From positions 179,416 to 211,415 of the forward strand of contig JACUTU010000001.1 in the NCBI GenBank assembly GCA_014859685.1: a DNA stretch of 32,000 nt. Reading direction: 5' to 3'. The notes beneath the pieces are model-generated. The model searched no databases and had not been told where the DNA came from. It saw only the letters and a program-made list of their open reading frames with translations. Numbering within the stretch: position 1 is the stretch's first letter; every line of letters begins with the position of its first letter. The DNA is from Sulfurospirillum sp. GTDB lineage: Bacteria > Campylobacterota > Campylobacteria > Campylobacterales > Sulfurospirillaceae. Shown piece by piece: positions 1,557 to 27,973 of the stretch. A program made the position numbers and the translations under genes.

Positions 1557-2234
1557 CTAGTGTGTGGCGTGTGATTGTGAAAGTTTTTCAACATAAGTAT
1601 TGCATAGTGGTATTTCTTGGATGATAAGATTTTTCAACTTTTCTATCTTTGTTTGTAAAGAAAGATCTTTGTTAAAAAGTTTGTTTGAGATATCAATATG
1701 ATGCCAGATTCCATTTTCTTCGCAAGCGATGGCTTGGAGGATTTGTTCTTTTCTTTGCGGGTATTTTTCAATCATTTCGTATGCAAAAGCAAAAAGAGCA
1801 TCGCCCATGTATTGATCATTGTATTTGAGTATATCGGAGGCATAGTATTCGTTGATAAAACTATCGTAGATTTTTTTGTCGCTTGATTCTATAAAAGCAT
1901 CTAAGATGTCAAATTTGTCGATAAAATCTTGGCTGTTGATGCACAAATCTTTTATGGCTCTTTTTGTGCTGAGTGGCTCACATGTAAGCTCTCTACCCAA
2001 AGAAGCCACAACTGTTGCAACTTTTTCATTTGTAAAAAGAGCAAGCCCATTGATTTTGATGCCGGCATTTTTGCCTATCGGATATTCAAATGCTTTTTCA
2101 TCGTCTTTAATCGTTTCTAGCATATCTGAGATAAGTTTTTCCCCATCAATTTTGAGTGTGATTTTTTTATAATATGGCAAATAGTCTGTTTTTGCATTAA
2201 AACGAAATACACTCAGCATAATTTTATATTCCAT
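1557..2234 (-). CDS. Hypothetical protein, SdhB/FrdB-like fold lacking all Fe-S cluster cysteine motifs
   Basis: 225-aa ORF. The N-terminus 'IMLSVFRFNAKTDYLPYYKKITLKID...MLETIKDD...GIKINGLAL' follows the SdhB/FrdB 2Fe-2S ferredoxin-like domain pattern. The C-terminal 'ILQAIACEENGIWHH' resembles FrdB 'MAQLNSQNGVWSC'. There is no CxxCxxCxxxCP or Cx4Cx2C motif, only 4 isolated Cys. It sits 3 bp upstream of the LutA-like ORF. Confidence 0.5.
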   Translation of the reverse strand: MEYKIMLSVFRFNAKTDYLPYYKKITLKIDGEKLISDMLETIKDDEKAFEYPIGKNAGIKINGLALFTNEKVATVVASLGRELTCEPLSTKRAIKDLCINSQDFIDKFDILDAFIESSDKKIYDSFINEYYASDILKYNDQYMGDALFAFAYEMIEKYPQRKEQILQAIACEENGIWHHIDISNKLFNKDLSLQTKIEKLKNLIIQEIPLCNTYVEKLSQSHATH

Positions 2235-2369
2235 GTCCGTATACTCCTTGAAATAGTTGAAAAAATTAGTGTACTGAAACTTTACTTAAGATATATTTTA
2301 TCTTGTGATTTTTCATAGGCACTTTCGGTATAATAGCGGAGCAAAATAATATTTTTATGATAACAAGGT

Positions 2370-3191
2370 GTGCGTGTGGATAAAGAGGCCTATTTTATAT
2401 CAAAATTCAATGATCAACAGATAGGTGATGATGGCGCTGTTTTGGATGGCTTGGTGTATAGTAAGGATCTTTTTTGTGAAGATATACATTTTAAGCGATC
2501 GTGGATGCGTTTAGAACAAATTGCAAAAAAAAGTATGCTTGTTAATATCTCAGATGCCATTGCCATGAATGCAACGCCATTGTACGCACTTATCGGTATT
2601 GTTATACCAAAGCATTTTTCACACAAAGATTTAGAGGCACTTGCTCTTGGGTTCAATGAAGCTGCAAATGCTTTTGACCTGCGTATCATAGGCGGCGACA
2701 CAACTAGCGGTAAATCACTGATGATTAGCGTAACTATTATTTCAAAATCAAAAAAACCATTGTATCGAAGTGGTATCAAAAAAGGTGAACTTTTAGCATA
2801 TACAGGTAAAATTGGAGAAAGTAAAAAAGGGCTGAAAACGCTTTTGCGTGGTGGAAAACTTGGTGCAAATTCGCGTTTTATAACACCACAACTGCGACAA
2901 AATTTTATAAAAGAAGCCGCAAACTACATCAACCACGGACTCGATATCTCTGATGGACTCTCTAAAGACCTTTCAAGGTTGTGTGCAAAAAAAGTTGGTG
3001 TACAGTTTACGCAAAAATTGAGCAAAAATGAACTGTGTAGTGGCGAAGAATACGAAATGCTTTTCTCTTTTGATAAACGGCACAAACACAAAATAGCAAG
3101 TATCGCTAAAAAACACAGAGTAAAACTCAATATATTTGGCTACACTTGCACAGGCAAATACCAATGTAGATGCCACGAAAATCATTTTTAG
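2370..3191 (+). CDS. thiL: Thiamine-monophosphate kinase
   Basis: 273-aa ORF with AIR-synthase-like ThiL motifs: 'IGDDGAVL', 'DAIAMNATPLYALIGIVIP', 'IIGGDTT', 'GLDISDGL'. The start is GTG 2370 or GTG 2376. Confidence 0.85.
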   Translation: MRVDKEAYFISKFNDQQIGDDGAVLDGLVYSKDLFCEDIHFKRSWMRLEQIAKKSMLVNISDAIAMNATPLYALIGIVIPKHFSHKDLEALALGFNEAANAFDLRIIGGDTTSGKSLMISVTIISKSKKPLYRSGIKKGELLAYTGKIGESKKGLKTLLRGGKLGANSRFITPQLRQNFIKEAANYINHGLDISDGLSKDLSRLCAKKVGVQFTQKLSKNELCSGEEYEMLFSFDKRHKHKIASIAKKHRVKLNIFGYTCTGKYQCRCHENHF

Positions 3192-3199
3192 GATTTGAG

Positions 3200-24868: not shown

Positions 24869-24877
24869 GGAGCAGAA

Positions 24878-27100
24878 ATGTCGAAAATTGTATATACTAG
24901 TGTTGATGAGGCGCCCGCGCTTGCGACCTACTCTTTCTTGCCTATTATCAAGGCTTTTGTAGCAAGTTCAGGTGTACAAATGGATGCGAAGGATATCTCA
25001 TTGGCAGGTAGAATTTTAGCAAATTTTAAAGAATACCTTGGGGCTAAGTATGTGGGAGAAGATGGGCTTGCGTATCTTGGCAGTTTAGTTTTGCAAGAAG
25101 ATGCAAACATTATTAAATTACCAAATATCTCAGCTTCAGTGCCACAAATCAAAACTTGCGTAAAAGAGTTGCAAGAAAAAGGTTTTAGCGTTCCTGATTA
25201 TCCACAAGATCCACAAAACGAAGAAGAAAAAAAAGTACGAGCAATTTTTGATAAGATCAAGGGAAGTGCAGTCAATCCAGTTATTCGAGAAGGAAATTCT
25301 GATAGAAGAGCGCCCAAAGCGATCAAAGAATACGCAAGGGCAAATCCGCATTCAATGGGCGTTTGGAGTAGTGATTCAAAGACACATGTAGCTTCTATGA
25401 GTGAGGGTGATTTTTATGGCACAGAACAATCCCATACTTTTGAAAATGCGGATGATTTAAAGATACAATTTATTTCGAAAAATGGCTCCGTAACAATCCT
25501 TAGAGAATCACTTCCTGTTTTAGCTGGCGAAATTATAGATGCCGCATATTTGAGTGTTGCTAAGTTGCGAAACTTTTATGCGCAAGAGCTGGCAGATGCA
25601 AAAAAACAAAATATACTTTTTTCATTGCATCTTAAAGCTACGATGATGAAAGTTTCAGATCCTGTGATGTTTAGCCATGCTGTGAGTGTTTTCTTTGAGG
25701 AGCTTGTTGCAAAACATGCAGACACACTGCAAGAACTTGGTGTAGATTTCAAAAACGGTTTTGGTGATTTGTATGCAAAATTGCCAAATGCAAGCGAGGC
25801 GGTGCAGCAAGAAATTTTAAATGATATCAAAGCAATCTATGCAAAACAACCGCAAGTTGCCATGGTAAATTCTGACAAAGGCATTACAAACTTACATGTA
25901 CCCTCAGATGTGATTATCGATGCTTCAATGCCTGCTATGATCCGTAACTCTGGCAAGATGTGGGCAGCAGATGGATCGGCTCAAGACACAAAAGCTGTGA
26001 TACCTGATAGAGCTTATGCTGGAATTTATCAAGTGAGTATTGAGGATTGTAAAAAACATGGTGCACTTGATCCACGCACGATGGGAAGTGTGCCAAATGT
26101 TGGTTTGATGGCACAAAAAGCTGAAGAATACGGTTCACATGACAAAACTTTTATCATTAATGACGATGGTGAAGTTGTTGTGAGCGACAAAACAGGCAAA
26201 ACAGTCTTTACATGTAGGGTGCAAGCGGGCGATATTTTTAGAATGTGCCAAGCAAAAGATGCACCGATTAAAGATTGGGTGAAGCTGGCTGTAAACAGGG
26301 CAAAACTCTCAAATACCCCCGCTGTTTTTTGGCTAGATCCACAAAGAGCACATGATATGCAAGTCAAGAAAAAAGTAGAACTTTATCTTAAAGAGTATGA
26401 TTTAAGTGGGCTTGATATTAAAATTATGTCGCCAAGCGATGCAACCCAACACGCACTTGATCGCATCCGACAAGGACTTGATACGATTTCAGTGACAGGC
26501 AATGTATTGCGTGATTTTTTAACTGATCTCTTCCCGATTTTAGAAATTGGTACAAGTGCAAAAATGCTCTCAATTGTTCCTTTGATGAGTGGTGGCGGCT
26601 TGTTTGAAACGGGTGCTGGTGGAAGTGCGCCAAAACATGTAGAGCAGTTGTTAGGTGAAAATTATCTTAGATGGGACTCTTTAGGCGAATTTATGGCGCT
26701 TGCTGCTTCGCTTGAGCATTTAGCCAATAAAACAAACAATGCAAAAATAGCTATATTATCCAAAACACTCGACGCAGCAACCAGTAAGTTTTTGCGCAAC
26801 AACAAATCCCCATCAAGAAAAATAGGTAGCATTGATAATCGTGGCAGCCATTTTTATCTAGCAATGTACTGGGCAGAAGCGTTGGTGGAGCAGCAAGAAA
26901 ATAAAGACTTAGCACAAGAATTCCAAGATCTTTATGCCACTTTGGTGGAAAATGAGGATAAAATCATGAAAGAATTGATACAAGTGCAAGGTAAAAGCGT
27001 AGATATCGGTGGATATTATTTGCCTGATTTGCAAAAAGTAACACAAGTTATGCGACCGAGTGCAACACTCAATAAAATTATAGATTCACGCAACAATTAA
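24878..27100 (+). CDS. icd: Isocitrate dehydrogenase (NADP), monomeric type
   Basis: The 740-aa length and sequence ('[23 protein letters not shown]', '[18 protein letters not shown]') are characteristic of monomeric IDH. Confidence 0.93.
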
Positions 27101-27121
27101 AAACGACAAGAGGAAAAGAAT

Positions 27122-27973
27122 ATGAGAGAGATTAAGTACGAAGATATCGTAAAATCGATTCGAGATTGTATCATCTTTAGTGGAACAAATCTTCCAAAAG
27201 ATGCGTATGCAAAGATGCAAGAGGCTCACGAAAAAGAAAAAAGCCCTGTAGCAAAAGAGGTTTTACGACAACTTTTAGAAAATGCAGATATAGCAAAAAA
27301 TGAAGATAAACCGCTTTGTCAAGATACAGGTTTGGCTGTGTTTTTTGTAAAAGTTGGTGAAGATTTGAAAATACTCGGTGGCAGCTTAAAACAAGCGATC
27401 AATGAGGGTGCTGAGCTTGGTTATCGAGAAGGATATTTTAGAGCTTCTACATGTCATTGGGATACAAGAGCAAATCTCAAAGATGAGATAGGCTACAACT
27501 TGCCCGCTGTGATTCATTTTGATCTTGTTGCAGGCGATGAACTTGAGATTGAATATGCTGCAAAAGGTGGTGGTAGCGAAAATGTAAGTCGTGCAACCGT
27601 ACTTGCACCAGCTGCTGGTCGTGCCGGCATAGTAGCATTTGTAAAAGAAGTAGTTTCTAATGCGGGTCCAAATCCATGTCCACCACTCACTGTCGGCGTT
27701 GGCATAGGAGGCACTTTTGAAAAAGCGGCTATTTCAAGTAAACACGCACTTTTTAGAGAACTCGGAAGTAAAAATGAAGATCCAGTGCTAGATTCTATGG
27801 AGCAAGAGTTAAAAGAAGAGCTCAACAAACTCGGAATCGGTGCTATGGGAATGGGCGGTACACAAACAGTATTTGGTGTACATATCGAAAAAAATCCATG
27901 CCATATAGCTTCTTTGCCAGTTTCTGTGAATGTACAGTGTCATAGTAGCAGACATACAAAAATCAAGTTTTAA
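27122..27973 (+). CDS. Class I (Fe-S) fumarate hydratase / tartrate dehydratase family, alpha (N-terminal-domain) subunit
   Basis: 283-aa ORF with the 'PLCQDTG' cluster-binding motif, 'AAKGGGSEN', and 'LTVGVGIGGTFE...'. It is followed by the matching beta subunit. Confidence 0.88.
   Translation: MREIKYEDIVKSIRDCIIFSGTNLPKDAYAKMQEAHEKEKSPVAKEVLRQLLENADIAKNEDKPLCQDTGLAVFFVKVGEDLKILGGSLKQAINEGAELGYREGYFRASTCHWDTRANLKDEIGYNLPAVIHFDLVAGDELEIEYAAKGGGSENVSRATVLAPAAGRAGIVAFVKEVVSNAGPNPCPPLTVGVGIGGTFEKAAISSKHALFRELGSKNEDPVLDSMEQELKEELNKLGIGAMGMGGTQTVFGVHIEKNPCHIASLPVSVNVQCHSSRHTKIKF

Follow-up and report, generated by a model that had tools for sequence, protein, structure and literature searches.

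A highly iterated palindrome of the Sulfurospirillaceae, with a one-sided dialect in one member, as a possible tag of self DNA

Introduction

Hyper-abundant DNA words that mark a genome as self are few so far, namely the uptake signal sequence (USS) of the Pasteurellaceae, the DNA uptake sequence (DUS) of the Neisseriaceae, and highly iterated palindrome 1 (HIP1) of the cyanobacteria. The subject of this work is a word with the core TACATGTA that is dispersed through 32,000 nt of a metagenome-assembled genome (MAG) of an uncultured Sulfurospirillum sp. (contig JACUTU010000001.1; this whole stretch of DNA is hereafter called the window) and that recurs in the six other Sulfurospirillaceae sampled. 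To judge from sequence, the word extends across the whole family as a highly iterated palindrome under pressure at the level of DNA, and is apparently an undescribed counterpart of HIP1 and of the DNA-uptake sequences.

The function of HIP1 is just now being linked to transformation. Specifically, methylated HIP1 raises the transformation of Synechococcus up to 100-fold or more, through an uptake or processing component and a homology-dependent, Chi-like component (10.1101/2024.09.10.611283), and HIP1, the abundance of which co-varies with the DNA-uptake machinery, has been proposed to be an uptake sequence (10.64898/2026.06.24.733823). Alternatively, a role in chromosome structure has been proposed, which is the explanation favoured by Xu et al. 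(PMC5861425), and biased repair has been suggested as a possible origin of the word (PMC4390886). The Campylobacterales are an order in which uptake is already known to depend on a methylated palindrome: DNA enters Campylobacter jejuni only if its RAATTY palindromes are methylated (PMC10046745, which cites Beauchamp et al. 2017).

No description of the Sulfurospirillaceae word, of ACATGT methylation, or of transformation or methylomes in Sulfurospirillum was found in the open-access literature searched, although an earlier mention is possible; a first-pass annotation of the window, made from its letters alone, likewise knew of no described element with this sequence. The word would be the second palindrome of the highly iterated kind, unrelated to the first and extending the class to another phylum, with a polar dialect in one lineage; such an independent example from the Campylobacterota would provide a second system in which to ask why words of this class exist and how their dialects evolve.

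Sequences and null models

The window organism is represented by about 35 kb, that is, the window and two short Logan contigs of the same organism that add 1.5 and 1.7 kb, and its relatives by 127 kb from six genomes. About 22 kb was fetched per locus from six other Sulfurospirillaceae and from one Arcobacter, the locus L206 being 16.8 kb long. Expected word counts were derived from Markov models of orders 0 to 4 and from a synonymous-codon shuffle (300 runs) in which all the protein sequences were fixed and the non-coding DNA was unchanged. In addition, the viral contigs of IMG/VR were scanned twice for pairs of the motif.

Abundance of the word in the window

The window, with a G+C content of 37.0%, contains 25 copies of ACATGT compared with four of CCATGT, three of GCATGT and two of TCATGT, a density of 0.78 ACATGT per kb or about one copy per 1.3 kb. 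Twenty-two of these copies extend to ACATGTA, 17 to TACATGTA and 15 to TTACATGTA, and five are the perfect 10-bp palindrome TTACATGTAA. Across the Markov orders, the expected numbers are 4.8-15 for ACATGT, 0.5-2.5 for TACATGTA, 0.17-0.87 for TTACATGTA and 0.04-0.22 for TTACATGTAG, the last of which is found seven times whereas its reverse complement CTACATGTAA is never found. In an unbiased enumeration of all k-mers in the window, no 7- to 10-mers are more over-represented than the word and its sub-words (z = 20-36). Moreover, the codon shuffle yields 4.5 +/- 1.1 copies of TACATGTA (maximum 10 in 300 runs) against the 17 observed, and 10.4 copies of ACATGT against 25.

The sites share nothing but the word itself, as their flanks are unrelated and similarity ends beyond about 12 bp, and 22 of the 25 lie in protein-coding sequence. 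A dispersed repeat of the repetitive extragenic palindromic (REP) or miniature inverted-repeat transposable element (MITE) type was rejected on these two grounds, and longer repeats or paralogous segments were rejected as the source of the word since none was found. The recount reproduced all the numbers of the first-pass annotation and all of its coordinates but one (the ACATGT that it had started at 7153 starts at 7152). The over-representation on which it had insisted survives both the Markov and the codon-preserving null in the window, and its reservation that a few paralogous segments might explain the enrichment is answered by the lack of any longer repeat around the sites and by the extension of the enrichment beyond the window.

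Selection on the DNA word rather than on a protein motif

The coding copies have a preferred frame, since 17 of the 22 are read xxx-CAT-GTA, and Leu-His-Val is the most over-represented tripeptide both in the window (8 versus 1.3 expected) and in the relatives (28 versus 4.5). The prevalence of His-Val is what a protein motif would produce; the choice of codons, however, is fixed well past codon usage. Specifically, Leu-His-Val is spelled TTA-CAT-GTA in seven of eight cases in the window and in all 28 cases in the relatives, where codon usage predicts 5-7%, and CAT-GTA encodes 17 of the 18 His-Val dipeptides of the window against 23% expected. Of the alternative reading frames of the word, one has a stop codon and the other demands Thr-Cys. 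Moreover, the Arcobacter orthologues have different residues at five of the seven sites examined (LLKIE, IVLE, FINAS, GLEVV and PYKFE in SufC, SufD and SufS), and share His or Val at the SufB site and at the second SufD site (7179).

It is scarcely credible, then, that the word is a Leu-His-Val protein motif, an mRNA motif, or a piece of some dispersed repeat or paralogous region. The codon bias, the copies that lie in further frames, within an RNA gene or between genes, the non-conservation of the residues in Arcobacter at most of the examined sites and the lack of extended similarity around the sites refute it, and an mRNA motif would in addition leave the dialect form described below absent from the mRNA of a minus-strand gene. 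Selection on the DNA word rather than on a protein motif is therefore supported by the codon shuffle, the TTA-CAT-GTA bias and the outgroup comparison; the first-pass annotation had argued for it from the CAT-GTA reading of the same 17 of 22 coding sites, and the alignment of orthologues that it had suggested bears the argument out.

Distribution among the Sulfurospirillaceae

The word is equally dense in all six of the other Sulfurospirillaceae samples (0.5-0.83 copies per kb, comparable to the window), so that the enrichment is not a property of the window alone, as had initially been conceivable. TACATGTA is present seven times in L202 and eight times in L203 (both uncultured, FtsK 81%), ten times in L204 (S. 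arcachonense, whose FtsK is 77% identical to that of the window) and 13 times in L206 (uncultured, SufB 89%), with about 0.5 or less expected in each of the four. It is present 12 times in L230 (CP093061.1; 0.53 expected) and 15 times in L231 (S. halorespirans, CP017111.1; 0.33 expected). The outgroup, the suf locus of Arcobacter defluvii (L232), has no TACATGTA, with 0.33 expected, and one ACATGT.

The perfect 10-bp palindrome accounts for 43 of the 79 copies of the six relatives, whose usual form is (c)TTTACATGTAAA(g), and the S. halorespirans consensus is cTTTACATGTAAA. As far as the sampled loci tell, the feature is Sulfurospirillaceae-wide, with the perfect palindrome TTACATGTAA as the form that is both ancestral and usual. 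A 3-Mb genome would hold about 2000 copies, a figure extrapolated from the sampled loci and not a direct count.

Downstream of ftsK in L230, a region with insertion sequence (IS) and transposase fragments throughout (12236-19147) has two word copies only (one intergenic spacer), a depletion of the word in mobile DNA that is suggestive and statistically not significant. Most of the IMG/VR matches are clusters confined to a small region of an unrelated phage and made up of other ACATGT palindromes, not dispersed copies. The phage contigs L179, L116, L139, L176 and L088, with 28% or 47-50% G+C, carry tight clusters of such palindromes, for example CTTACATGTAAGATA (seven copies), ACTTTACATGTAAAGT (six copies) and ATTACATGTAAT, which look like operator or iteron arrays. 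A phage fragment with 39% G+C (L250, positions 1-7333; IMGVR_UViG_3300028601_000088) carries four Sulfurospirillum-type cTTTACATGTAAA copies in 7.3 kb, a host-like density, and encodes a tail protein, an endolysin, a spanin, and a reverse transcriptase that possibly belongs to a diversity-generating retroelement.

Gain, conservation and avoidance

The suf operons of the window and of L206 are 74.6% identical in nucleotide sequence, and five of the six alignable sites keep at least nine of ten bases between them, compared with 27% of the background 10-mers (P = 0.007); other pairs of genomes display a mixture of site conservation and turnover. The copies arise via point substitution, not insertion, as exemplified by the gains in sufB and ftsK listed in Table 1, the latter of which includes a Pro-to-Val replacement. 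These comparisons indicate that the word is imposed on genes by forced TTA-CAT-GTA codons and by the replacement of residues at weakly constrained positions.

Where it is not part of the word, CATG is about 2-fold rarer than expected in every Sulfurospirillaceae sample and in Arcobacter (observed/expected, O/E, 0.53-0.65). Specifically, all the CATG-containing non-motif variants are about 2-fold depleted and those without CATG are not. These data bear on the notion that the word is a functionless, neutral by-product of biased repair, for instance by a very-short-patch-like nicking system that is tied to a methyltransferase and would turn near-cognate sequences into the word. Such an origin would account for copies made by point substitution and not by insertion, and the CATG/ACATGT core is a typical methyltransferase target; a similar origin is among those suggested for HIP1. 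The depletion of deamination neighbours specific to very-short-patch-type repair was looked for and none was seen, as ATATGT/ACATAT (O/E 0.61-0.83) and TATATGTA (0.67) are no lower than the other CATG-containing variants. Moreover, non-synonymous replacements have been fixed in creating or retuning sites, the conservation of sites exceeds the background, and a symmetric system gives no one-sided, strand-specific dialect, all of which makes a by-product of repair quite improbable.

A separate avoidance was noticed in the same organism. ACGT is absent from the window (1-32000; 0 versus about 39 expected), where it is the only missing 4-mer, and also from L205 and L001 of the same organism, while the relatives have 18-52 copies in each locus. 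This looks like an extreme avoidance, peculiar to this organism, of the site of a MaeII/HpyCH4IV-type (ACGT) restriction enzyme. GGCC is about 4-fold depleted in the window.

An asymmetric dialect in the window organism

The window organism departs from the family in the symmetry of its copies, as perfect palindromes are five of 25 against the 43 of 79 in the relatives (Fisher P = 0.003). The deficit is due to a G dialect: position 10 of the TTACATGTAN copies is split between G (seven) and A (five) in the window, whereas A prevails in the relatives (41 A, eight G; P = 0.006). Two orthologous sites that read TTACATGTAA in the relative read TTACATGTAG in the window, the amino acid being altered at each; five further window copies have the right half only, ACATGTAG, and the symmetric change CTACATGTAG is never found in the window. 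The dialects can be written as TTTACATGTAAA for S. halorespirans, nTACATGTAAA for S. arcachonense and yTTACATGTAG for the window organism, which carries a derived asymmetric dialect, TTACATGTAG, that differs from the ancestral palindrome at one end. The saturation of the His-Val core is higher in the window organism than in the relatives, and therefore the system is not decaying.

The asymmetric form is also unevenly distributed between the strands, with 12 copies of ACATGTAG against one of CTACATGT, and the one-sided copies read on the + strand have the left half only (TTACATGT) or the right half only (ACATGTAA) in a ratio of 12:1 (P = 0.003). Since the + strand carries 80% of the coding DNA, and shuffling the codons is enough to yield about 2:1 for ACATGTAG versus CTACATGT, about half of the raw skew is attributable to gene orientation and codon usage. 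A sense-strand (codon) cause accounts for this 2:1 and fails for the minus-strand yhdP-like gene, in which all four copies keep cTTACATGT on the + strand and read xxx-CAT-GTA-AGC on the sense strand. A model in which orientation follows the DNA strand fits far better than a sense-strand one, at a Fisher P of 0.015 and a likelihood ratio near 160, figures that depend on five sites from two minus-strand genes; four of these five share the majority orientation. In the plus-strand genes, palindromes were converted by non-synonymous A-to-G changes and not by synonymous TTA-to-CTA changes, a route that keeps one strand orientation. A strand-asymmetric A-to-G mutation bias was considered as the cause of the G dialect and rejected, since no general asymmetry of A-to-G versus T-to-C changes was seen in the alignments.

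The GC skew at third codon positions (GC3) is positive in + coordinates for plus- and minus-strand genes alike, which identifies the + strand as the leading one. In the relatives, the one-sided variants are distributed 15:11 overall and 2:7 in S. arcachonense, with no consistent polarity; in S. halorespirans, all four lie on what the coordinates of the record suggest is the leading strand. Within this 35 kb we take the polarity to be genuine. The strand asymmetry reported in the first-pass annotation thus stands as to the 12:1 ratio and its retention in the yhdP-like gene, and is weaker than the raw ratio implied, given the null of about 2:1. Its treatment of the asymmetry as a defining property of the word does not hold, because the ancestral form is palindromic, as in the relatives, and the asymmetry is a derived, organism-specific dialect.

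The polarity invites two further explanations. In the first, which is the main rival of a self-DNA tag and is nevertheless rather doubtful, the word is a Chi-like signal: AddAB, an enzyme of RecBCD type, would read one strand of it and pass from degradation to RecA loading, thereby marking the self chromosome; the palindrome would work from either side in most species, and the signal would have become polar in the window organism. The asymmetric form on the leading strand, the 12:1 ratio of the non-palindromic copies including four of five in minus-strand genes, the A-to-G conversions that keep one orientation, the four of four variants of S. halorespirans and the Chi-like component of the HIP1 effect are all consistent with it, and we know of no Chi sequence in the Campylobacterota. 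Chi sites, however, are 5-8 nt long, usually G-rich and few-fold enriched, and are exceeded by the present word in both length (10-12 bp) and enrichment (30- to 75-fold). Moreover, the word is a palindrome in six relatives, where its one-sided variants have no consistent polarity (15:11, and 2:7 in S. arcachonense), gene orientation predicts part of the skew, and AddAB was not seen in any examined locus.

The second explanation, a polar word of the FtsK-orienting (KOPS) or SpoIIIE-recognition (SRS) type that directs FtsK translocation towards dif, shares with the first the co-orientation of the asymmetric form with replication in the window, where FtsK has the gamma domain. FtsK gamma recognises G-rich octamers, from which an AT-rich word of 10-12 bp differs, and its enrichment exceeds that of KOPS by an order of magnitude. 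More decisively, the perfect palindrome is dominant in all six relatives, that is, in six of the seven sampled genomes, and since a palindrome cannot encode direction, KOPS-type polarity is excluded as the lineage-wide function; for the window organism, too, we consider this role very improbable.

A possible tag of self DNA

The explanation that we put forward as the likeliest, though with reserve, is that the word is a tag of self DNA in natural transformation or recombination. In such a system, word-bearing DNA would be preferentially taken up, or better processed and recombined, the word probably being read after methylation of its CATG/ACATGT core. Copies would therefore spread via biased gene conversion, as in the molecular drive that has been suggested for USS and DUS; purifying selection would then hold them, and shifts in the specificity of the reader would give rise to the dialects of the species. 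The dialect of the window organism would be TTACATGTAG, co-oriented with replication in the available 35 kb.

The enrichment, its DNA-level nature, the lineage distribution, the conservation and the dialect are established from sequence, whereas the link to transformation, the methylation of the core and the molecular drive are inferred. The functional reading leans on three indirect lines, namely the dependence of C. jejuni uptake on methylated RAATTY, the effect of methylated HIP1 on transformation, and genes of the competence type in two of the relatives. Specifically, comEC adjoins dnaB in L206 and in S. halorespirans, in the latter of which it follows dnaB, and S. halorespirans (L231 6001-8867 and 12452-13714) has two prepilin-type (GFxxxE) genes immediately upstream of priA, an arrangement that matches the context of the competence and uptake gene cj0683 of C. 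jejuni (PMC10046745). The dnaB gene of S. halorespirans also carries an intein (Hom_end/LAGLIDADG).

Several points weigh against the tag. Sulfurospirillum is not known to be naturally transformable, and the literature found holds nothing that addresses it; the case is built on about 35 kb of the window organism and 127 kb from six relatives. The window itself contains neither a competence gene nor a DNA methyltransferase gene, its sole methyltransferase gene being of the small-molecule type, and the fetched loci likewise encode no DNA methyltransferase. The PciI/NspI-like or orphan methyltransferase that the first-pass annotation had suggested looking for is thus not among the genes sampled. 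The 12:1 polarity of the non-palindromic copies, which follows the DNA strand rather than the sense strand, is not expected of an uptake sequence, and the avoidance of CATG implies a restriction-related cost that the benefit of the tag must outweigh.

The tag and the polarity could be reconciled if a self-tag for transformation or recombination had, in one lineage, been retuned to TTACATGTAG on the leading strand, a signal specific to one strand and oriented with replication. This composite is unlikely; if true, it would provide a natural intermediate between a word of the uptake-sequence or HIP type and a polar word of the Chi type, and the Campylobacterota could thereby gain their first defined Chi or uptake signal beyond the methyl-RAATTY system. 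The one-sided, leading-strand dialect is in any case a natural experiment on a symmetric signal turning polar. A practical consequence concerns S. multivorans and S. halorespirans, cultured organohalide respirers that are understood to be genetically hard to manipulate: if the word acts like DUS or HIP1, placing (methylated) TTTACATGTAAA on constructs should raise the efficiency of transformation.

Positions of the copies

The copies of the window and the elements associated with them are collected in Table 1.

Table 1. Copies of the word and associated elements in the window (coordinates of the window; the strand is left empty for symmetric or unoriented features).
Position	Strand	Feature
1978..1987	-	TCACATGTAA on the + strand = gCTTACATGTGa on the minus strand; minus-strand DUF5644 gene; only oppositely oriented half-site copy
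3323..3332		Perfect palindrome cTTACATGTAAg; truD, Leu-His-Val
5397..5406	+	ATACATGTAG; sufB, Ile-His-Val-Gly; from L206 ATTCATGTTG via two synonymous changes
5831..5840		Perfect palindrome; sufC codons 2-4 (Met-Leu-His-Val-Lys); kept in L206; Arcobacter LLKIE
7150..7159	+	cTTACATGTAG; sufD; L206 orthologous site TTACATGTAA, A-to-G non-synonymous (Val-Ala vs L206 Val-Asn)
7177..7186	+	TCACATGTAC; sufD; weak copy, core ACATGTA, 27 bp downstream of the 7150 copy
7991..8000	+	cTTACATGTAG; sufS; L206 TTACATGTAA (Val-Gly vs L206 Val-Lys)
8153..8162		Perfect palindrome; sufS; L206 identical; Arcobacter GLEVV
8545..8554	+	cTTACATGTAC; sufS, other frame (Pro-Tyr-Met-Tyr); L206 identical
9668..9677	+	TTACATGTAG; close to the 3' end of the DUF59 (FeS_assembly_P) gene
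9851..9860	+	tTTACATGTAG; RNase P RNA gene, 3' arm of helix P12
15868..15877	+	GCACATGTAG; norB (His-Ala-His-Val-Ala), right half only
16239..16270		14-bp hairpin, CAUG loop, between norB and minus-strand tRNA/HU genes; dG -17.4 kcal/mol, z = -4.7
16250..16259	+	tTTACATGTAG; apex of hairpin 16239-16270
19285..19294		Perfect palindrome; ends the flgL-like reading frame (last codons plus stop, Asn-Tyr-Met-stop); near -30 of the ftsK promoter
19299..19308	+	Extended -10 element TGgTATAAT, between the two palindromes upstream of ftsK; sequence read directly
19319..19328		Perfect palindrome; ftsK leader, immediately 5' of the AAGGA ribosome-binding site
19890..19899	+	GTACATGTAG; ftsK; lineage-specific gain; three relatives have GTTCATCCAG or GTKCATCCTG
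22437..22446	+	cTTACATGTAT; minus-strand yhdP-like gene; sense strand ATA-CAT-GTA-AGC
22626..22635	+	cTTACATGTAG; minus-strand yhdP-like gene; sense strand CTA-CAT-GTA-AGC
23145..23154	+	cTTACATGTGG; minus-strand yhdP-like gene
23169..23178	+	cTTACATGTGG; minus-strand yhdP-like gene, 24 bp downstream of the 23145 copy
25382..25391	+	ACACATGTAG; icd, right half only
25892..25901	+	cTTACATGTAC; icd
26208..26217	+	tTTACATGTAG; icd, Thr-Cys frame
26633..26642	+	AAACATGTAG; icd, right half only
27447..27456		CTACATGTCA; fumarase gene; bare ACATGT, neither flank

The last entry is probably a chance hexamer and no true copy. Each of the non-coding sites that had been proposed (helix P12 of rnpB, the apex of the hairpin after norB and the pair at the ftsK promoter) was located; the hairpin is followed by a U-run on the minus strand and is thus intrinsic-terminator-like. 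The word-free regions are likewise as first described, namely 9.9-15.8 kb (P = 0.009 for such a gap at the observed density), 27.5-32 kb and the flgL-like gene, the last with the qualification that the word is present at its stop codon. Inside the word-free stretch of 6 kb, a dCache-PAS-GGDEF-EAL gene (10944-13373) has an in-frame TAG (11811-11813) and a truncated EAL domain, and it is probably a pseudogene.

Close pairs of copies, 24-34 bp apart, exceed the expectation from density (three of 24 gaps, P = 0.026; 7150-7186, 19285-19328 and 23145-23178); L230 has a comparable pair (14889/14914), and so does the ftsK promoter in every relative. At this promoter, the positions of the two palindromes are conserved in five species: that of 19285..19294 is kept in L203, L204 and L230, and that of 19319..19328 in L202, L203 and L230, the corresponding place in L204 (9951) being identified via the alignment with L202.

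Such an arrangement is what an array of sites for a dimeric chromosome-organising protein or an orphan DNA methyltransferase, with a role in nucleoid structure, replication or epigenetic marking, could look like. Homodimers typically bind palindromes of 10-12 bp, and the excess of close pairs, the positional conservation of the ftsK-promoter pair and the conservation of sites between genomes fit this possibility, as does the chromosome-structure role proposed for HIP1. Nonetheless, the roughly 2000 sites extrapolated per genome are 20-100 times the number in known dispersed sets such as those of matS, SlmA-binding, Noc-binding and parS sites, a homodimeric reader does not predict a dialect that alters one half-site (the symmetric change being found zero times), and no candidate protein was found; a site array is thus improbable.

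The start of ftsK itself is unusual. A hydrophobic N-terminal, four-transmembrane (4TM)-like part (19326-19602) is in frame upstream of the called TTG start, and its frame is open back to a TAA inside the second palindrome, with no ATG, GTG or TTG within. After the AAGGA ribosome-binding site, L202 has TTG versus TCT in the window, so that ftsK has either a non-canonical start (ATT at 19341?) or a lost N-terminus.

Comparison with known systems

Among the classes to which the first-pass annotation had likened the word, the uptake sequences and the HIP1-type palindromes stand, and KOPS is excluded by the lineage-wide palindromic form. The word resembles KOPS and SRS in its polar distribution in this one window, and differs from them in composition, length and enrichment. 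With Chi it shares a dispersed distribution, the marking of self DNA if it is a tag, and, in the 35 kb of the window organism, a co-orientation with the leading strand that the pooled relatives do not show; the version of the relatives is palindromic.

The methyl-RAATTY (CtsM) system is that of C. jejuni, which belongs to a sister family of the same order, the Campylobacterales. RAATTY is a palindromic mark that discriminates self DNA at uptake, and the prepilin-priA context of S. halorespirans, together with ComEC, resembles the context of cj0683 (PMC10046745). Conversely, RAATTY is a 6-mer that is frequent by chance and needs no enrichment, and the methylation of the Sulfurospirillum word is hypothetical.

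The likeness to USS and DUS is one of behaviour. They too are 9-12 bp long, with about one copy per kb; they are imposed on coding sequence in preferred frames and at weakly constrained residues, are family-wide with species dialects, and are occasionally found in terminator-like hairpins. As to competence genes, the sampled relatives have ComEC (L206 and L231) and the prepilin-type genes (L231). To our knowledge, neither USS nor DUS is palindromic or has a replication-linked strand bias, and known uptake sequences are without polarity. Their strand neutrality is absent from the window (12:1, P = 0.003) and present in the relatives (15:11).

The likeness to HIP1 is one of form. Both are short palindromes, 15- to 300-fold over-represented at about 0.3-2.7 copies per kb (PMC4390886, PMC5861425), and this level is reached here on samples of 17-35 kb (TACATGTA 17 versus 0.5-2.5, 12 versus 0.53, and 15 versus 0.33). 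Both are present in coding and non-coding DNA with one dominant reading frame, are conserved between genomes above the background, have lineage-specific variants or extensions, and have a core that resembles a methyltransferase site. In contrast, HIP1 is GCGATCGC, 8 bp long, and the present word, TTACATGTAA, is an unrelated, AT-rich, highly iterated palindrome of 10-12 bp from the Campylobacterota. Moreover, the HIP1 class has orphan methyltransferases for its core, of which none is among the window or the fetched loci, and in one species the word has a form that is one-sided and polar with respect to the strands, something impossible for a true palindrome. The closest described system is thus HIP1 in form, and USS and DUS in behaviour.

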